From Escherichia coli (GTDB taxonomy: Bacteria > Pseudomonadota > Gammaproteobacteria > Enterobacterales > Enterobacteriaceae), in assembly GCF_030013205.1 (NCBI RefSeq), contig NZ_CP122648.1: a DNA stretch of 64,000 nt. One strand, 5' to 3'. Positions within the stretch are counted from its first letter, which is position 1. Every line of letters starts with the position of its first letter. Shown in pieces: positions 10,864 through 19,824 of this stretch. The notes below the pieces were generated by a model that was given only the letters and a program-made list of their open reading frames with translations, had not been told where the DNA came from and ran no database searches. The position numbers were made by a program, and so were the translations under genes.

Positions 10864-11085
<222 letters not shown>

Positions 11086-11338
11086 TTGTTTTACCGCCTG
11101 ATGGGCGAAGAGAAAGAACGAGTAAAAGGTCGGTTTAACCGGCCTTTTTATTTTGTGATATGTATGAAGTACTTTGGAAGTATAAGTCCATAACTTGTCT
11201 CGATGTAGATATACTGCACAACTTGTTTACAGTATGAGCAAACAATAATTATCATTAAAATTCTTCTTGACCGTTTTACTCCAACTCCCTATAGTAGCGC
11301 CCCGTTGCCACCCATGAGGTTTGGTAGCAAAACAATTT

Positions 11339-11426
11339 GGTGAGGTGTCCGAGTGGCTGAAGGAGCACGCCTGGAAAGTGTGTATACGGCAACGTATCGG
11401 GGGTTCGAATCCCCCCCTCACCGCCA
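11339..11426 (+). tRNA. serW: tRNA-Ser (anticodon GGA)
   Basis: GGTGAGGTGTCCGAGTGGCTGAAGG...CCTGGAAAGTG...GGGTTCGAATCCCCCCCTCACCGCCA; long variable arm; anticodon loop CU-GGA-AA. Confidence 0.9.
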
Positions 11427-11588
11427 TATTCAAAGAAGAGCTCGTACGAAAGTAGGGGCTTTTTTTTCGCATATTGCACACACCGGGGGGATGAGAAGCC
11501 CCGACCGGGGTTCGACAACTGGCGCAGCCAGTTGGACAGACCACGAACACAGTGAGTGGGCTGCCCGCAGGGCGAGCGAAGCGAGTCA

Positions 11589-11611
11589 ATCCCCCCCTCA
11601 CCGCCATATTT
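11589..11611 (+). repeat. Direct repeat of the last ~23 nt of serW plus flanking TATT (aatccccccctcaccgccatatt)
   Basis: Near-identical copy of 11404-11430 located ~185 bp downstream; each copy is followed by a related A-rich/ctcgtacgaaagta segment. Confidence 0.8.
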
Positions 11612-11617
11612 AAAGAA

Positions 11618-11647
11618 AAACTCGTACGAAAGTACGAGTTTTTTTTC
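11618..11647 (+). terminator. Rho-independent terminator-like hairpin (ctcgtac-gaaa-gtacgag followed by T8)
   Basis: Perfect 7 bp stem, 4 nt loop, U-run; a degenerate copy sits at 11432-11458. Confidence 0.6.
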
Positions 11648-11889
11648 GCATTTTATCTGCCTGTACGGCAGTGAACTCAAATACTACACGTTTAGTCCGT
11701 TATTAATAAAGCAAAACCATCTCATTTTCCTGCTACCACCCTTTTTTATCCTTACCTTCCCGCAGCACTAATTATCAACAACTTACCATCATCATCAAAA
11801 AAAGGGTCTGAACCTCCTCCACCCCATAAACAAAAAGTCCGTAACCTCTTTCGAGATTACGGACTTCACCAACCTACCTGACAATTAGA

Positions 11890-14166
11890 TTAATGCGCTG
11901 CTTCCGCCTTGTGCTTTTGTGCACTCTGGAATCCGTAAGTCAGCTCATTTTTCTCTTTATCCAGCGCGACGGTGACCTGACCGCCGTCCACCAGCGAACC
12001 AAACAACAGTTCGTTGGCGAGCGGTTTTTTCAGGTTGTCCTGGATGACACGCGCCATCGGACGTGCGCCCATTGCCCGGTCGTAACCTTTCTCGGCTAGC
12101 CAGTTACGCGCTTCCTGGCTCACTTCCAGAGAAACACCTTTCTGATCCAACTGAACCTGCAACTCGACGATGAATTTATCCACTACCTGATGGATCACGT
12201 CGGTTGACAGATGATCGAACCAGATAATGTTGTCGAGACGGTTACGAAACTCCGGCGTAAAGATCTTCTTGATCTCTTCCATCGCATCGGTGCTGTTGTC
12301 CTGGTGGATAAGACCAATCGATTTACGCTCAGTTTCTCGTACCCCAGCGTTGGTGGTCATCACCAATACCACGTTACGGAAGTCCGCTTTGCGTCCGTTG
12401 TTATCGGTCAGCGTACCGTTGTCCATCACCTGCAACAGAATATTGAACACGTCCGGGTGCGCTTTCTCGATTTCGTCCAGCAGCAGCACCGCATGTGGAT
12501 GCTTGATGACCGCATCAGTCAGCAAACCGCCCTGATCAAAACCAACGTATCCCGGAGGCGCACCAATCAGACGGCTGACGGTATGGCGTTCCATATACTC
12601 GGACATATCAAAGCGCAGAAGCTCAATGCCCAAAGCTTTCGAAAGCTGTAGCGTCACCTCTGTTTTCCCGACCCCGGTAGGGCCGGCAAACAGGAACGAA
12701 CCGACCGGTTTATGTTCGTGACCTAAACCTGCACGCGCCATCTTAATGGCTTCAGTCAGCGCCTCGATGGCTTTATCCTGACCGAAGACCAGCATTTTCA
12801 GGCGATCGCCGAGGTTTTTCAGGGTATCGCGGTCACTCTGAGAAACACTCTTCTCTGGAATGCGCGCAATACGGGCCACCACGGACTCAATATCCGCCAC
12901 ATTAACGGTTTTCTTGCGTTTGCTTACCGGCATCAGGCGTGCGCGAGCGCCCGCTTCGTCGATAACGTCAATGGCTTTATCCGGCAGATGACGATCGTTA
13001 ATGTATTTCACCGCCAGCTCTACCGCTGCACGCACCGCTTTTGCGGTATAACGCACGTCGTGGTGCGCTTCATACTTCGGTTTCAGGCCATTGATGATTT
13101 GAACAGTTTCTTCGATCGACGGTTCAGTAATATCAATTTTCTGGAAGCGACGCGCCAGAGCACGGTCTTTCTCGAAAATGTTGCTGAACTCCTGATAGGT
13201 TGTCGAACCAATTACGCGAATTTTACCGCTGGAGAGCAACGGTTTGATTAGGTTAGCCGCATCGACCTGACCACCAGACGCTGCACCCGCACCGATAATG
13301 GTGTGGATCTCATCAATAAACAGGATGCTGTTAGTGTCCTGCTCCAGCTGCTTGAGCAACGCTTTAAAACGTTTTTCAAAGTCGCCGCGATATTTTGTGC
13401 CCGCTAACAGAGAACCGATATCGAGAGAGTAAATCGTACAGTCAGCCATCACTTCCGGCACATCGCCCTGAACAATTCGCCAGGCAAGACCTTCTGCAAT
13501 CGCGGTTTTACCGACACCAGATTCCCCCACCAGCAGCGGGTTGTTTTTACGGCGACGGCAGAGAACCTGAATAGCACGCTCCAGCTCCTTCTCACGACCA
13601 ATCAGTGGGTCGATTCCGCCCACGCGCGCAAGCTGATTCAGGTTCGTCGTGAAATTCTCCATACGTTCCTCCCCACCAGCTTGTTCTTCGCTGTTTGGCT
13701 GGCTGCCAGGATCAGAAGACTGTGTCGGCTCGTCTTTACGCGTGCCATGAGAGATAAAGTTCACCACATCGAGACGGCTGACTTCATGTTTACGCAACAG
13801 ATATGCCGCCTGCGACTCCTGTTCGCTAAAGATAGCGACCAGAACGTTTGCACCGGTAACCTCATTGCGACCGGAGGACTGGACATGGAAGACCGCACGT
13901 TGCAGTACACGCTGAAAACTCAGCGTCGGCTGTGTGTCGCGCTCCTCTTCACTGGCAGGCAGAACAGGTGTGGTTTGTTCAATAAAGGCTTCCAGTTCCT
14001 GACGGAGCGCAACCAAATCCACAGAACACGCTTCCAGCGCCTCCCGGGCAGATGGGTTACTGAGCAGCGCCAGTAACAAGTGCTCGACGGTCATAAACTC
14101 ATGACGGTGCTCGCGCGCTCTGGCGAAAGCCATATTTAAACTGAGTTCCAGTTCTTGATTGAGCAT
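11890..14166 (-). CDS. clpA: ATP-dependent Clp protease ATP-binding subunit ClpA
   Basis: 758 aa from [24 protein letters not shown]; two AAA+ modules ([16 protein letters not shown]). Confidence 0.95.
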
Positions 14167-14196
14167 AGGCACCTCCCCCAATTTTTATGCCTGCAT

Positions 14197-14517: not shown

Positions 14518-14603
14518 TGTCAGTTATCATCTTCGGTTACGGTTATCGGCAGAACGCCCTGCCGCTGACAAGAGCTTATTTGCCTGACCAATCTACTCCA
14601 CAT

Positions 14604-14622
14604 GATAGATAACTATCATTTA
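14604..14622. repeat. Putative attL core (gatagataactatcattta)
   Basis: 17/19 identical to 25213-25231. Confidence 0.5.
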
Positions 14623-14691
14623 TATCATTTAGTTAATTAGTCTTTATTTTTCATTATGTTGCAAATAACAACCCCGTCAAAAACAGTGATA

Positions 14692-14714
14692 TTAACTACA
14701 CCATTAACTACACC
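14692..14714. promoter_or_regulatory. Putative integrase arm-type sites (ttaactacaccattaactacacc) followed by cgaacaa repeats
   Basis: Tandem 11-mer direct repeat; a near-identical copy lies at 25069-25091 just upstream of the int start. Confidence 0.45.
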
Positions 14715-15303
14715 GCTTCACGAACAATATCGAACAACCGCGAACAAAGATCAACACGCTTTAATCATTATCATTTTCCGGCTATCCGTCATGAAGCTGG
14801 TGGATGATCTGCGTGGTGATTTCCACCATTCAGAGCAGGGGCGGTCATCATGACCATGCCATAACAAAAACCCCATATTCGTGGTTTTTCTGTGTCGGGG
14901 CTATTCTGCTGTTGCCGTGCTGGTGGATATTCTCCGGTATGCGGCTCCCCATATCGGCATCAGGCCCACCAGCGTGAAGCGTTTTTCATTTTTCGCGGGT
15001 ATAAAAAATCGATGGGGCGGGCAGTCCTGAAGACGTCAGGGTACGGAGATTTGACCCGCCCCTCCCTGTGCATGAGCACAATAAGTAACCGAAGGCGGAA
15101 TTCCGCCCTCGGTACTTACATATGAGAAACGATATTTCTTCCACCGATACCCTTTATTTGGGTATTGCGAGTAAGCCCCAAAATCTGGGTGTTACTCTTA
15201 CTACCCAAACTACGGGTAGTTTCCGTAGTTTCATGGTCGAGTTGCAAATCTGCAACTCACCCACCAGCCAACGCAATTTTGCGTTATCGGGAATATCAGC
15301 AAG

Positions 15304-15591
15304 TTACCGCCGCAGTCGTTCCGGCTTCTTCCACTGGTAAGTATTTTTCGCGCTCTCCCTCCGTTGTTGAGAACGGCGACGGTATGCCAGCAACTCAAGG
15401 ACTCTGGTTCGTATGTTGCGCATATCCACGCCGTTAAGCTCAATACCATCACGGCGCATCACCTCAGCAACAACACGCGCGTAATTTTCAGCGGTGACTG
15501 TATCCGGCTGCGCGGCCTGTTCGTCAGCCAACTGGCTGATTCCACCAGCACAGCGGATTAATCGCAGTATTTCAGATTCGGTCATTATCAT
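15304..15591 (-). CDS. Hypothetical protein (95 aa), island packaging module
   Basis: ORF overlaps the terS-like stop by 4 nt; no recognisable motif. Confidence 0.45.
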   Translation of the reverse strand: MIMTESEILRLIRCAGGISQLADEQAAQPDTVTAENYARVVAEVMRRDGIELNGVDMRNIRTRVLELLAYRRRSQQRRESAKNTYQWKKPERLRR

Positions 15592-16073
15592 GCCTGTTTT
15601 GCGACCTCATTCACTACGTCATTTTTTACCATCCGGCTGATAATCTGATTACACAAATCGTCAATAATTGACTGCACTCTGTTTACTGCCATCGGTTTAA
15701 GCCCGGCATCACGTGCCAGAATATTGGGGAGTTTTGCCAGTTCCTCGCTTACGATTTCCCCCCATATAGCCATCTCTTTTCGCACATCATCGGCGGGTAT
15801 GAGTTGCGCCGTTTCCTGTTCGAACTTGAGGCGTTCACGTTCGGACTGATACCAGGCCTTACGGTCTTGTGGCTCCATTTCTTCCAGTGATGCCGGAACG
15901 GGAAGATCAAGAAAACAGGTCAGAATGTCAGTCACCCGATAGAGTTTCAGCTTGTCATGCCCTCCGGCTGGCTGGATGTTTTTCAGCCTTGCCGCCGCAG
16001 TCTGACGACATATTCCCGCTATCGCCGCCAGTTGATTAATGTTCAGCATCAGATTTTTCAGTTCTCGATCCAT
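15588..16073 (-). CDS. Phage small terminase-like protein (Nu1-like HTH DNA-packaging protein)
   Basis: Start placed at MDRELKNLM (GGAGCGGGT SD); N-terminal HTH LNINQLAAIAGICRQTAAARL; layout resembles lambda Nu1. Confidence 0.55.
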   Translation of the reverse strand: MDRELKNLMLNINQLAAIAGICRQTAAARLKNIQPAGGHDKLKLYRVTDILTCFLDLPVPASLEEMEPQDRKAWYQSERERLKFEQETAQLIPADDVRKEMAIWGEIVSEELAKLPNILARDAGLKPMAVNRVQSIIDDLCNQIISRMVKNDVVNEVAKQA

Positions 16074-16226
16074 ACCCGCTCCAGAATGTTTTAAACATGC
16101 ATCTTGCGAACAACTTTCAGAAGAGGTCAAAAAATGCGCTATATGTTGAGCATAAAACAAGCAAAATTAACATGCCAAAAATAAAAATACTTAAAATTCA
16201 ATACAATATGAAGATGATGATGACGA

Positions 16227-16306
16227 ATGAAAATGCAAAAACTAGCCTTTTTCCGCGCCGCTCCCGCCCCGTGGCAGACCACTCCACCGGGAGGACCCGT
16301 AAAAAA
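16227..16306. repeat. 80 bp conserved element, copy 1 (~92% identical to 18761-18840)
   Basis: atgaaaatgcaaaaac..ccgggaggacccgtaaaaaag; lies between the capsid terminator and terS. Confidence 0.8.
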
Positions 16307-16324
16307 GGCGGCTGTCGCCGCCCT
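16299..16324 (-). terminator. Rho-independent terminator after the protease-capsid gene
   Basis: Minus strand ggcggcgacagccgcc followed by ttttttta. Confidence 0.6.
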
Positions 16325-16329
16325 TGTTG

Positions 16330-18243
16330 TCATGCTCCACTCGATTTCAGTAATCCGCGATAATCGAGGGCCGCGACACCTGCATCTATGCGCACTTTCC
16401 AGGCGACACCATCAACAGTAAAGCCCACCTGCTCCTCAAGATATGGCGTATCCATACCATCAAGATAAGCGACTTCTATTGTGTCCATCCCCTTAGCTGC
16501 GGCTACATACCATTCCTTGCTATTGGCCTTATCAAGACGTGGCTCAACAATTACTTCTGCCATATCTTTCACCACGTTAATGATGCCGGGGTTCTGATTG
16601 ATAGTGCTCTCATCACCAACCGGAAAGACTGATGACGATGACAGAATGGCGCGACGCGCGGCAGATTCCAGCGCGGCAGGGACCAGAACAAAAGCAGGGG
16701 TAATATTCAGTGAGTCGCCGTTAGCATCCTCCTGGAGGCGCATCAGCTTACGGGCTTCATCAAGCCCCACCATGTCCATATCCTTCGCAATAAGATTTTT
16801 ATGATCGGCATGGAATAACGCTTTACCATCCGTAAATTTGCCGTTGCTGGTTAACAGAAGATAAACCAGATTACCTACTGTTCTGGCGGCCGCACGCCCC
16901 ATCGCCATGGGGATTGTAGTTAACTGGGTCAGGTCATCGTTGATAATGGCCTGACGGGTAACAGAAAAAATATTACCGTATGTGGCCAGCGCAATAGGTA
17001 CACCTTTATCGCTGGTGGTGATGTATTTATATTCCGCACCTTCCGGTACTTTATCCAGCTTTGAAAAACCATTCAGACCAACGCGCTTTGCTTCATGAAA
17101 GTTTGAAAGCGATCCGGTACGCGTCCATTTCTGGAACGTTTCGCCGCTGTCCTGCCAGCCTTTCAGCACTGATTTTTCAGCACCACCAGCCAGAATATGA
17201 GAAAAATCGCTGCTGCTGTGTGTGAAAGCTGCATTAACGACCTGCGAGCGATTTAAAAAACTGCCAACACTGATACCACGATCAGTTAGTGATGCCTGGG
17301 CCATTTCAAAAAGGCTCATCATCGCGTAAGGATTTCCCCGCTCTGGGCGTTCATACCCAAGACGAGAATAAAGCCCCTGACGAATTGCATCGCCTGTTAT
17401 GTTCCCGTTACCGGCATAAATATGAGTCGGGATATTTTTATTGGATGGCGTGGACTCGCGCCCCAGCTCGTTCAACAACTTTTCACGGGCCATCTCCGGT
17501 GTACATGATGCATCCTCCAGGCACGCCATTTTGATCCCGTCGTAACGACTGCCGAACAGGCTAAACACTTCACTTATTCCGTTGATGCGCTTCTGTTCAT
17601 TACCAGCAATATTGGCTGCTCCCTGTGGCGGGGTAATCATTCCTTTAATGGTTTCAGGCATGTGTGAAAAATCTCCTGTGCGTTTCGATTCAATTCGCGC
17701 CATTGCTGTGACAGATGGCAACAATTCATCAGCAAAACCGTGCTTAAGGCATTCTTTCCCGTCCATCCAGGTTTCATCTTCCAGCATGGCGGTAATTTCC
17801 TGTGCTGATTTGCCCGTTTTTCTGGCATAAGCAGGGACTAACACGGTTTCCACCTTATCCAGCAAATCAGCATAATCACGCATATCACCAGCATTTCCGC
17901 CAGAGATACCCCACGGCTTATGTATCATCATCATGGCGTTTTCCGGCATCACAACACGATCGCCAGCCATTGCGACAACCGAAGCCATTGAAGCCGCAAC
18001 ACCATCGATATAAACCGTAATTTCTGCCGGATGATTCCGTAACAGGTTATAGATGGCGATGCCTTCAAACACGTCACCACCTGGCGAATGGATCCGCAGG
18101 TCGATATGTGAGACATCGCCCAGGGCTTTCAGGTCTTCCGCAAACTGCTTCGCGGTAATACCGAAGCCGCCAATTTCTTCATAGATGGATATTTCTGCCG
18201 CTCCGCGAACACCCAGCGCCTTAATGGTGTACCAGTGATTCAT
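16330..18243 (-). CDS. Fused prohead protease (ClpP-like) / major capsid protein
   Basis: 637 aa; N-terminal ~200 aa with ClpP-like serine-protease motif (IHSPGGDV); C-terminal ~430 aa of major-capsid size and character. Confidence 0.7.
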   Translation of the reverse strand: MNHWYTIKALGVRGAAEISIYEEIGGFGITAKQFAEDLKALGDVSHIDLRIHSPGGDVFEGIAIYNLLRNHPAEITVYIDGVAASMASVVAMAGDRVVMPENAMMMIHKPWGISGGNAGDMRDYADLLDKVETVLVPAYARKTGKSAQEITAMLEDETWMDGKECLKHGFADELLPSVTAMARIESKRTGDFSHMPETIKGMITPPQGAANIAGNEQKRINGISEVFSLFGSRYDGIKMACLEDASCTPEMAREKLLNELGRESTPSNKNIPTHIYAGNGNITGDAIRQGLYSRLGYERPERGNPYAMMSLFEMAQASLTDRGISVGSFLNRSQVVNAAFTHSSSDFSHILAGGAEKSVLKGWQDSGETFQKWTRTGSLSNFHEAKRVGLNGFSKLDKVPEGAEYKYITTSDKGVPIALATYGNIFSVTRQAIINDDLTQLTTIPMAMGRAAARTVGNLVYLLLTSNGKFTDGKALFHADHKNLIAKDMDMVGLDEARKLMRLQEDANGDSLNITPAFVLVPAALESAARRAILSSSSVFPVGDESTINQNPGIINVVKDMAEVIVEPRLDKANSKEWYVAAAKGMDTIEVAYLDGMDTPYLEEQVGFTVDGVAWKVRIDAGVAALDYRGLLKSSGA

Positions 18244-18449
18244 TGCTCCCCCCCAGATGCAAAACCATTCTTATCAAGCCACGCGTTAACCGCGTGTCTG
18301 ACAATCTGCGCCGCACCTGGTAATGGTTGGTCAGGATGATGATTTATGTGGTCGATCCTGTACTGCTTAAGGCGCATAACGGTCTGCGCATCCAGATGAA
18401 CGGAACCACCTTTTACCTCGCCTGTGTTCAGGTCGTTAATACAATTCAC
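18240..18449 (-). CDS. Hypothetical small protein (69 aa), translationally coupled to the capsid gene
   Basis: GTG start with AAGAGGAAG SD; stop overlaps the capsid ATG. Confidence 0.5.
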   Translation of the reverse strand: MNCINDLNTGEVKGGSVHLDAQTVMRLKQYRIDHINHHPDQPLPGAAQIVRHAVNAWLDKNGFASGGEQ

Positions 18450-18549
18450 AGTAACTTCCTCTTACTGACTAAACTGCGCGCATTATTGATCGATAAAAGT
18501 GGTAGATAAACATATTTCTATCATAAAAATAGATTAATCAGATTCAGAC

Positions 18550-18575
18550 ACAAAAAAGCCGGAGAGAATCCGGCA
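18550..18575 (-). terminator. Rho-independent terminator-like hairpin (gccggattctctccggc followed by T6)
   Basis: Minus-strand stem-loop plus U-run ~100 nt upstream of the 69 aa ORF. Confidence 0.55.
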
Positions 18576-18760
18576 TAAATATCCCGCCATCTGAACACGT
18601 TTTGCACAGGCAACTCCATCTGGCAGGTGAAAAACAAATTTATTTATATATTTCAATTAATTGCAAACTGGTCTAATGACAGGGAGAAAAAAATATTGTA
18701 CAGGTGAAAACAGAAATAACTTTTAATTATCAATAAATTACTACACATGCTGCCGCCGCC

Positions 18761-18840
18761 ATGAAAATGCAAAAACCAGCCTTTTTCCGCGACGCTCCCG
18801 CCCCGTGGCAGGTCACTACACCGGGAGGACCCATAAAAAA
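18761..18840. repeat. 80 bp conserved element, copy 2
   Basis: ~92% identical to 16227-16306. Confidence 0.8.
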
Positions 18841-18858
18841 GCCGGATTGCTCCGGCTT
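18833..18858 (-). terminator. Rho-independent terminator after the SSB-like gene
   Basis: Minus strand gccggagcaatccggc followed by ttttttat. Confidence 0.6.
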
Positions 18859-18872
18859 CTGTTACTCGTTGC

Positions 18873-19295
18873 TTAAAACGGTATGTTATCCCCGTACGGA
18901 TCATCATTTCCCGCCTGTTGTTTTGCTCTGCTCAGTGCATCAGTAGCCTGCCCCTGTTGGCCTTTTTTGCCGCCCGGTCGCGCCGTTCTCGCACTGATTA
19001 CGCTGTCTGCGATAACCTGCCAGCCCTGCCGCGTCTCCCCGTTCTGTCCGGTCCACTGGCTCACCTGCATGTTACCCGCCACGCTCAGGAGTTCACCCTT
19101 GCGGTGCTTTGCCAGTGCTTCGGCCTGTCTGCCAAACGCCAGGACGGATAACCACATCGTCGCCGTTCCGTCATCTGCCTGGCTGCACGGAAGTGGGACC
19201 GCCATACTCGCCATCGTCATTTGTGTACCCTTGCTGGTGGTCTTTAACTGCGGGTCAGCCACCAGCCGCCCGTAAGCCGCTATCTGTGCTGTCAT
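18873..19295 (-). CDS. Single-stranded DNA-binding protein-like
   Basis: 140 aa; OB-fold-like N-terminus (GRLVADPQLK...), Gly/Gln-rich tail ending DDPYGDNIPF, resembling the SSB acidic tip DDDIPF. Confidence 0.65.
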   Translation of the reverse strand: MTAQIAAYGRLVADPQLKTTSKGTQMTMASMAVPLPCSQADDGTATMWLSVLAFGRQAEALAKHRKGELLSVAGNMQVSQWTGQNGETRQGWQVIADSVISARTARPGGKKGQQGQATDALSRAKQQAGNDDPYGDNIPF

Positions 19296-19537
19296 GCTGT
19301 CTGCTCTCCGGTTTTAACGTTGATGGTTGTCACCTGTTCCGCTTCGGCAATCTCCCGTTCTGTCAGCGTGGCAAAGTTTGCAGCTGCCGTTGTCATGAAT
19401 GAGCTAATCAGTTCGGGATGTGCTTTCGCATATCCTTCCCCGGCGTTGCGGTCGATGATTTTTATCGACACCCTTAACCAGTGTTCCGTCAAATCAAGGG
19501 CGTGCGATTGTGATTTTTTTGTGTGCTTCGCTGTCAT
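19292..19537 (-). CDS. Hypothetical protein (81 aa)
   Basis: ORF between the ori and the SSB-like gene; overlaps the ssb start by 4 nt. Confidence 0.45.
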   Translation of the reverse strand: MTAKHTKKSQSHALDLTEHWLRVSIKIIDRNAGEGYAKAHPELISSFMTTAAANFATLTEREIAEAEQVTTINVKTGEQTA

Positions 19538-19584
19538 AGGCTTTATCTCACAGCAGTAAATTAAAATTTTTGCGTTTTAACCCT

Positions 19585-19812
19585 TCACCTGTTCACCTTT
19601 TGATATTTTATCTTTTAATTCATAATGTTAAGGGGTGAACAGTTTCACAAAAACTATTCACCAACTGTTCACCACTGTTCACCCTTGAAGCTCAATAAAC
19701 AATCAAAAAGGTGAACAGTGAATAGTTTGGTGAACAGTTCATAAATAACTGTTCACCCTATAACATACTGATACAAAAGATATTTATGACAGGGTGAACA
19801 GTGGTGAACAGT
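19585..19812. promoter_or_regulatory. Putative replication origin: iteron cluster (at least 9 copies of GTGAACAG/CTGTTCAC) in AT-rich DNA
   Basis: Repeats at about 19587, 19634, 19665, 19676, 19710, 19729, 19750, 19794, 19803 in both orientations, immediately 3' of the primase gene. Confidence 0.65.
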
Positions 19813-19824
19813 TATTCCATAAGT

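Follow-up and report, generated by a model that had tools for sequence, protein, structure and literature searches.

A unit of the RtT tRNA-linked tandem repeat behind the serW gene of Escherichia coli

The analyzed stretch of Escherichia coli DNA (64,000 nucleotides of contig NZ_CP122648.1, assembly GCF_030013205.1; hereafter, the window) carries a duplication of the serW 3' end that very probably represents a single unit (1.37 copies) of the tRNA-linked tandem repeat RtT, situated behind serW; its copy number most likely changes by recombination, and it is probably expressed by read-through from the tRNA gene. The RtT unit behind serW is itself already known: it is a member of a curated RNA family, and RefSeq genomes contain annotations of exactly this sequence.

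The serW locus and its duplicated tail

Only one tRNA gene was detected in the window by ARAGORN, a tRNA-Ser(GGA) at positions 11339-11426 of the plus strand, which also scored 53.8 bits against the Rfam tRNA model and is annotated by PGAP in an identical record. Its location between infA (10867-11085, plus strand) and clpA (11890-14181, minus strand) identifies it as the serW locus of E. coli, with cydD, cydC, aat and infA on the upstream side and clpA and clpS downstream on the opposite strand. A 501-bp query around the gene was 100% identical to the corresponding region of strain ETEC1748 (NZ_CP122719.1), and approximately 27 genomes matched this region at 99% identity or higher. A consensus scan revealed a sigma-70-like promoter of serW (TTGACC, 17-nt spacer, TATAGT; 11267-11295, plus strand; 10 of 12 consensus matches), the sole candidate promoter on the plus strand upstream of the RtT unit, and returned no promoter-like site on the plus strand between 11427 and 11650. 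Open reading frames covering the unit (e.g., 11353-11613 on the plus strand and 11276-11680 on the minus strand) were treated as spurious, as was the "hypothetical protein" that PGAP places over the RtT/CRISPR stretch in strain JNE25-001.

The initial annotation had noticed that the 3' end of serW recurs downstream, and the repeat was readily recovered: the window contains the 23-mer AATCCCCCCCTCACCGCCATATT at two positions only, 11408 and 11588, and this 23-mer was absent from all 100 shuffled sequences (0/100), even when two mismatches were allowed. The dimensions given there have to be corrected. Instead of ~23 nt of the tRNA, the exact tRNA-derived part of the repeat is 19 nt (AATCCCCCCCTCACCGCCA, at 11408 and 11588), just upstream of which the copies diverge (ttcgAAT vs gtc-AAT), and the start-to-start spacing is 180 rather than 185 bp. 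According to a repeat search in the window, the segment 11408-11466 matches 11588-11646 (59 nt, 90% identity), and the direct repeat goes on as 11460-11475 versus 11639-11654 (94% identity), giving a total length of ~68 nt. The repeat thus reaches ~48 nt past the end of the tRNA, through a hairpin, a T-run and CGCAT(A/T)TT, and the segment between the two copies is 112 nt long.

In both copies, an AU-rich trailer leads into a hairpin of 8 bp closed by a GAAA loop, after which come a T-run and CGCAT(A/T)TT. Copy 1 (11408-11475, plus strand), recognized by the repeat search and by its fold, comprises the last 19 nt of the tRNA, the trailer, hairpin 1, a T8 run (11460-11467) and CGCATATT; copy 2 (11588-11654, plus strand), recognized by the repeat search, by its fold and by a terminator-like site at 11613-11646, comprises the 19-nt tRNA 3' end (11588-11606), the trailer, hairpin 2, a T-run and CGCATTTT. 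Hairpin 1 (11440-11459; GCTCGTAC-GAAA-GTAGGGGC) contains one G.G mismatch and one G.U pair, and the pairing of hairpin 2 (11620-11639; ACTCGTAC-GAAA-GTACGAGT) is perfect, which agrees with the earlier description of a degenerate hairpin after the gene and a perfect one after the duplicate. When the A/U extensions are included, the folds reach -17.3 kcal/mol for hairpin 1 and -18.1 kcal/mol for hairpin 2, so hairpin 1 is just mildly weakened; the terminator scan was passed by hairpin 2 only. In most other strains and species, hairpin 1 has an intact 8-bp stem, the GAAA loop and the T8 run. The G.G mismatch in the window is a lineage-specific change and no design feature, and the order "degenerate, then perfect" is not a general pattern of RtT units. 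The serW transcription unit probably ends in copy 2 (11588-11654), where the A-rich and T-rich flanks of hairpin 2 make up a putative two-way terminator.

Hairpin 2 is adjoined by a single degenerate type I-F CRISPR repeat, GTTCACTGCCGTACAGGCAGataaaatg (11649-11676, minus strand), which lies outside the RtT repeat, beside leader-side sequence, and is degenerate at its 3', far end. Its score against the Rfam model CRISPR-DR4 was 29.7 bits, under the gathering score of 35. An array requires at least two 28-nt repeats with 32-nt spacers, and one repeat and no spacer were found here; this segment is the collapsed remnant of the CRISPR4 array of the clpA-infA locus. The same position is occupied in K-12 by a repeat-spacer-repeat arrangement with one spacer and in JNE25-001 by an array with three spacers, and in strain E10 cas6f-csy3-csy2-csy1-cas3f directly follow serW. 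The clpA-infA CRISPR locus has been described as CRISPR-III (PMC3903273).

Family assignment and conserved structure

The segment 11471-11606 (plus strand), which ends in the copy of the tRNA 3' end (...CACCGCCA), is assigned to the RtT RNA family by Rfam, PGAP annotation, minimum free energy (MFE) folding and covariation. It matched Rfam RF00391 over model positions 1-130 of 130 with 47.2 bits (E=1.5e-7), a small margin of just 2 bits over the gathering score of 45. In the 100%-identical record NZ_CP122719.1, the PGAP annotation of the segment reads "RtT sRNA, processed from tyrT transcript", and one or two "RtT sRNA" features are annotated at serW in other strains. Other Rfam matches (sX4, Leu and Thr leaders, MicC, plastid 3'UTR) remained far under their gathering scores and are explained by the tRNA and terminator sequence.

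The arrangement also corresponds to that of the family. The core motif begins 62 nt after serW, directly 3' of the tRNA and on the same strand, and the spacing of 180, with AATCCCCCCCTCACCGCCA present twice, matches a family unit of 178-180 bp ending in the last ~19 nt of the tRNA; in addition, a conserved structure with compensatory changes was found across 46 distinct Ser-type units. The unit of ~180 bp thus consists of the hairpin and T-run after the tRNA, a GC-rich structured core of ~112 nt and the copy of the last 19 nt of the tRNA, which includes the end of the T-loop, the 3' strand of the T-stem, the 3' strand of the acceptor stem, the discriminator base and CCA, and after which the trailer and hairpin recur. 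In line with the initial annotation, which had seen no obvious tRNA between the copies, no second tRNA was called there by ARAGORN or the Rfam tRNA model.

In the MFE fold (-55.8 kcal/mol, z=-2.6), the G-run at 11485-11491 pairs with the duplicated T-stem/acceptor strand at 11589-11597, and this closing helix encloses four hairpins. The central pairing of the Rfam consensus (TTCG with CGAA) differs from the MFE hairpins, and the latter fit the Ser-type units better. To assess covariation, the 46 distinct Ser-type units were aligned, and pairs were counted in both terminator hairpins as well as in the closing helix and each of the four internal hairpins of the MFE fold. Paired cells amounted to 94.5%, compared with 30-48% when the 3' partners were slid by 1-3 columns; 18 pairs were changed on both sides, and the observed values were reached by none of 500 shuffles. 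Covariation was found in both terminator hairpins and in internal hairpins 2 and 3 of these units. It was strong in the terminator hairpins (for example, GCTCGTAC/GTACGGGC, GCCGGTAC/GTATCGGC, GCTCATAC/GTATGAGC and GCTCGCAT/ATGCGGGC), and internal hairpin 2 showed CAACTGGC/GCCAGTTG versus CAACGGGC/GCCCGTTG. RtT was also among the families with covariation support in the CaCoFold study. The covarying internal hairpins indicate selection on the RtT element itself.

The G-run/C-run closing helix is invariant inside the Ser class and changes along with the host tRNA between classes. Four segments of the unit, namely, the 5' G-run, both strands of internal hairpin 1 and the duplicated 3' end, match or complement the T-stem of the host in all three classes compared: they read GGGGG / CCCC / GGGG / CCCCC in enteric tRNA-Ser units, GAAGG / CTTC / AAGG / CCTTC in enteric tRNA-Tyr units and GGTGG / CCACC / GGTGG / CCACC in Marinobacterium tRNA-Tyr units (the Tyr values were read directly from the sequences; the scripted extraction mis-registers the Tyr 3' end, ACCACCA). 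The unit contains the 5' strand of the T-stem and the start of the T-loop (GGGGTTCGA), and ~66 nt beyond follow the end of the T-loop, the 3' strand of the T-stem, the acceptor strand and CCA; upstream of each of these T-arm pieces lies the complementary strand.

Relatives, copy number and alternative origins

The closest comparison is with the serX array of K-12, located between ghrA and ycdU, where three full units and one partial unit (3.2 copies) with a 180-bp period carry three PGAP "RtT sRNA" features. The tRNA of serW in the window reads identically to that of serX in K-12 (88 nt), the trailers differ by 1 base, and the hairpin, the 19-nt end and the period are shared; the differences are the locus, the single unit at serW in the window and small allele differences. 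The tyrT-tyrV locus of K-12 contains the unit in a diverged form: the two tRNA-Tyr genes are separated by an RtT-like spacer, and tyrV is followed by 3.14 repeats of 178 bp, each of which closes with the 3' end of tRNA-Tyr (...AATCCTTCCCCCACCACCA). This RtT/rttR locus (b4425) resembles serW in the position directly behind the tRNA, the unit of ~178-180 bp ending in the last ~19 nt of the tRNA, the core motifs GGATGAGAA..TTCGA and CCCG.AGGGCGAG, and a closing helix formed by a 5' G-rich run and the duplicated T-stem/acceptor strand. It differs in the host tRNA (Tyr instead of Ser(GGA)), in the T-stem-related segments (GAAGG/CCTTC instead of all-G/C) and in the number of copies (3.14 versus one); moreover, Ser-type units open with a hairpin and a T-run, whereas E. 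coli Tyr-type units do not. According to later papers that cite the work (PMC3318445; bioRxiv 10.1101/2024.07.17.603846), the 178-bp tyrT repeats have been known since Bosl and Kersten 1991.

A scan of one genome per species for the motif GGATGAGAANCNNCGANNNNGGTTCGA, which is common to Ser and Tyr units, revealed at least 120 loci with at least 195 units. Among the 195 units in the matches listed, 86 follow tRNA-Ser(GGA) and 83 follow tRNA-Tyr(GTA), the upstream flank is cut in 25 cases, and one unit lies near tRNA-Asp. The genera in these matches include Escherichia, Citrobacter, Enterobacter, Klebsiella, Salmonella, Pluralibacter, Kosakonia, Atlantibacter, Serratia and others, and a few of the matches listed come from Marinobacterium, Neiella, Kangiella and Sedimenticola. 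Among the matches listed, the distance from the tRNA to the first unit is 58-67 nt, tandem units are spaced by ~173-183 bp, and arrays contain up to five matched units, at three tRNA loci and in dozens of genera; the syntenic contexts are purU/narI (tyrT/V), ghrA (serX) and infA/clpA (serW). Outside E. coli, serW-linked units among the matches listed were found in Citrobacter sp. R56, Citrobacter sp. Cu233, C. amalonaticus and a Citrobacter metagenome-assembled genome.

Within E. coli, approximately 944 of 5,426 complete genomes (~17%) carry one or two copies of the RtT unit at serW, as counted by coverage of at least 80% of 11250-11750, which needs both the serW-specific flank and the unit (the K-12-type locus covers 63-78%). 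In K-12 (C600) and an O157:H7 strain, serW is followed by one intact hairpin and no unit, and strains E30 and KGu016 have two units. Two genomes share the inserted element on the clpS side of the window (100.0% over 4 kb); they contain 0 and 2 units at serW, compared with one in the window. Regardless of the locus, 4,584 genomes contain the RtT core, ~3,361 of them at full length (in K-12, the copy is at serX), so that serX units are common and serW units belong to a minority. Two further counts have to be read with restrictions: a two-unit query returned 2,915 genomes, in which both loci are mixed since serX arrays match 82% of the query, and the 3,776 genomes returned by a serX flank-plus-unit query are an upper bound, as some loci without a full unit reach 88% through the double use of one segment. 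A change in rtT copy number has also been reported for Salmonella Paratyphi A strains, as a 175-bp VNTR (PMC2658671).

The "ancient fixed duplication" that the initial annotation had suggested is right as to age, given the units at the same locus in Citrobacter, and wrong as to fixation.

Units are probably gained and lost through unequal recombination or replication slippage between the ~68-nt direct repeats, a process that would convert the arrangement of the window into that of K-12 by one deletion between the repeats. Is the unit at serW then an old resident, or could it have been acquired recently from another locus? The identical 88-nt tRNA genes and nearly identical trailers of serW and serX might permit ectopic recombination or gene conversion, by which a unit of the serX array would have been copied to serW; the cores are 96% identical, and the serW and serX units of C. 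amalonaticus are nearly alike, so exchange between both loci does occur. However, the core in the window is closer to other serW units than to serX: its identity is 98-99% to other E. coli serW units, 97.6% to the serW unit of Citrobacter sp. R56 and 96.0% to the serX core of K-12. The serW units of E. coli share an allele of their own, with CCAC...GTGG in internal hairpin 3 where serX has CCGT...GCGG, a compensatory difference, and with GCGCAGC instead of GCGACAGC in the loop. Besides several E. coli strains, Citrobacter sp. R56 has this allele at serW, which points to a long separate history and makes a recent copy from serX very improbable. The distinct serW allele suggests, in place of a recent event, that the unit has long been present at serW and has repeatedly been lost or changed in copy number, and the occurrence of the unit at serW of Citrobacter also indicates that it is old.

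Even less probable is that the unit is a decayed tandem duplicate of serW, a pseudogene that has no role of its own. Both T-arm pieces, GGGGTTCGA and the sequence ~66 nt on, from the end of the T-loop to CCA, follow the T-stem of the host tRNA and would suit a decayed tRNA, and a tRNA-derived origin of the two ends of the unit is possible. The D-arm and the anticodon arm are absent, however, and no tRNA was called in the unit; the core motifs GGATGAGAA and CCCG-AGGGCGAG are common to Ser and Tyr units and absent from either tRNA, the same architecture extends across genera, and the internal hairpins covary.

The other of the two readings offered by the initial annotation was the scar of a lost tRNA-targeting element. 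In this case, an island would have integrated at serW, its attL and attR doubling the tRNA 3' end, and an internal deletion would have left the repeats with a short remnant. serW and serX are indeed genuine island targets: the 14-bp repeats on either side of OI-43, OI-48 and SRL-PAI correspond to the last 14 bp of the tRNA, given as TGGCGGTGAGGGGG, and excision of these islands restores the intact gene (PMC3064760). The 14-mer CCCCCTCACCGCCA is present twice in the window (11413-11426 and 11593-11606, plus strand), the second copy, contributed by the RtT unit, being a putative integrase site, and the arrangement at serW is polymorphic among strains. The att duplications of P4-family integrases at serW/serX (OI-43, OI-48, SpLE1, SRL-PAI) thus resemble the present case as direct repeats of the tRNA-Ser 3' end with CCCCCTCACCGCCA; however, those are 14 bp long and enclose tens of kb including an integrase gene, whereas the ~68-nt repeat at serW extends 48 nt past the tRNA end, beyond the att core, and encloses a 112-nt conserved, covarying RtT core, with no integrase or island sequence between the copies. 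Furthermore, among the matches listed, the same units form arrays of up to five with a ~173-183-bp period at three tRNA loci, including serX and tyrT/V, the core is almost wholly chromosomal (10,287 of 10,295 places, with 8 on plasmids), and excision of known islands leaves an intact site (PMC3064760). Universal occurrence in island-free genomes, which had been named as the observation that would speak against a scar, does not apply to a unit limited to the above minority at serW; the scar fails on these other grounds and is extremely improbable.

Expression and possible role

An RtT unit of the recombining tandem repeat, as preferred here, would have no promoter of its own; its transcripts would start at the serW promoter and reach the core by passing through hairpin 1. 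Downstream of each CCA, cleavage in the AU-rich trailer would then be followed by trimming of the kind that tRNA 3' ends undergo, and the predicted product, by analogy to the rtT RNA of the tyrT operon, is an RNA of ~170-180 nt. Hairpin 2 would end the unit and might also stop minus-strand transcription coming from the CRISPR leader/clpA side. The serW unit is thus probably co-transcribed with serW, as the tyrT precedent and the lack of a separate promoter suggest. In most strains, the intact hairpin 1 and T8 run should stop the majority of transcripts short of the core, so that the RNA may be of low abundance. If formed, it would share with 3'ETS-leuZ the character of a stable RNA cut from the 3' trailer of a tRNA operon transcript; 3'ETS-leuZ, in contrast, is a short sponge RNA bound by Hfq; it extends to the operon terminator, is not tandem and has no copy of the tRNA 3' end at its end. 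RtT is not known to have a base-pairing target. As described in citing papers, the rtT RNA of tyrT is a discrete species of ~170-180 nt produced from the tyrT operon (PMC3318445; bioRxiv 10.1101/2024.07.17.603846), and RNA-seq signal from annotated RtT RNAs has been recorded in Klebsiella (PMC4147364). The sole published proposal for a function connects the tyrT rtT RNA with the stringent response (bioRxiv 10.1101/2024.07.17.603846).

The four T-stem-related segments may allow two mutually exclusive pairings: the closing helix together with internal hairpin 1, or a T-arm-like hairpin together with a T-arm split by an insert of ~66 nt. This opens the idea that the RtT unit is, beyond a passive repeat, a mimic of the top half of the tRNA that co-evolves with its host, an idea that we consider unlikely. 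A processed RtT RNA with a free NCCA end may divert, in the manner of a decoy, factors that recognize the T-arm and the CCA end of uncharged tRNA.

Several consequences follow for the locus and the family. A duplicated tRNA 3' end at serW should not be counted as evidence of a lost island. Each RtT unit doubles the 14-bp att core and could thereby affect the insertion sites of serW/serX islands. With its polymorphism of zero, one or two units at serW and its variable CRISPR4 remnant, the infA-clpA spacer represents a small hypervariable marker. Finally, the tracking of the host T-stem across classes provides a modest lead on the biological role of RtT RNA, and a decoy role, if true, would agree with the connection long drawn from rtT to the stringent response.

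CRISPR remnant and inserted element around clpA and clpS

On the minus strand beside serW, at 11649-11676, we identified a single type I-F CRISPR repeat, GTTCACTGCCGTACAGGCAG, followed by a degenerate ataaaatg; its leader-side sequence reaches ~11889, and neither a spacer nor cas genes were found at this repeat in the window. The CRISPR4 array of the clpA-infA locus has collapsed here to this single repeat. At this position, K-12 has one spacer, JNE25-001 has three spacers, and E10 carries the full cas6f-csy-cas3f operon. The 132-aa "hypothetical protein" WP_012602745.1 called by PGAP in JNE25-001 (positions 1802-2200 of its serW region, L005) covers the 3' portion of one RtT unit, the ~180-bp repeat behind the tRNA, together with CRISPR repeats and spacers, and is almost certainly a spurious ORF.

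Further along the window, an inserted element of ~10.7 kb (~14,600-25,250) lies between clpS and yljB/cspD, with an integrase (23806-25053) and a DUF1441-like ORF (15588-16160), both on the minus strand. The element is present in 166 of the 5,426 complete E. coli genomes compared and is missing in K-12 and ETEC1748. Its annotation in KGu016 includes a tyrosine integrase, an HTH regulator, an Icd-like protein, DUF4222, a DNA primase, SSB, DUF1441 and a ClpP-like prohead protease/major capsid fusion. The element resembles a phage satellite, either P4-like or a capsid-forming PICI.

Sequences complementary or similar to the serW tRNA

The T-arm of serW (11397-11416) and the 5' portion of the RtT core (11485-11504) form a 20-nt inverted repeat that is 85% complementary; consequently, in a read-through transcript, the G-run of RtT could compete for the T-stem and acceptor strand of the tRNA itself. 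Alternatively, the inverted repeat may be a mere by-product of the RtT closing helix.

On the 104.9-kb plasmid NZ_AP027855.1, a segment annotated as "tRNA-OTHER" (29534-29635; hits H30 and H90) shares ~95% identity with a portion of tRNA-Ser(GGA) plus trailer. It may represent a copy of the 3' region of serW/serX, such as an att site, that belongs to a mobile element.

RtT units in other taxa

RtT-like units that contain the motif GGATGAGAA...TTCGA were also found beyond Enterobacterales, in Marinobacterium (L020, L044, L091, L116, L123), Neiella (L066), Kangiella (L081) and Sedimenticola (L072). In Marinobacterium, they sit behind tRNA-Tyr, each preceded by an unrelated terminator hairpin of its own, and the segments related to the host tRNA T-stem are changed to GGTGG/CCACC. 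Some copies (Neiella, Kangiella) are missing the tRNA-like 3' end.

Within E. coli, the serW and serX RtT units retain separate alleles. The serW and serX units of Citrobacter amalonaticus (L093/L094) are almost identical and have a common, different hairpin 3 (AATGGCC-GCA-GGCCAT) inside the core; such sequence similarity suggests that the two loci have been homogenised with each other in this species.
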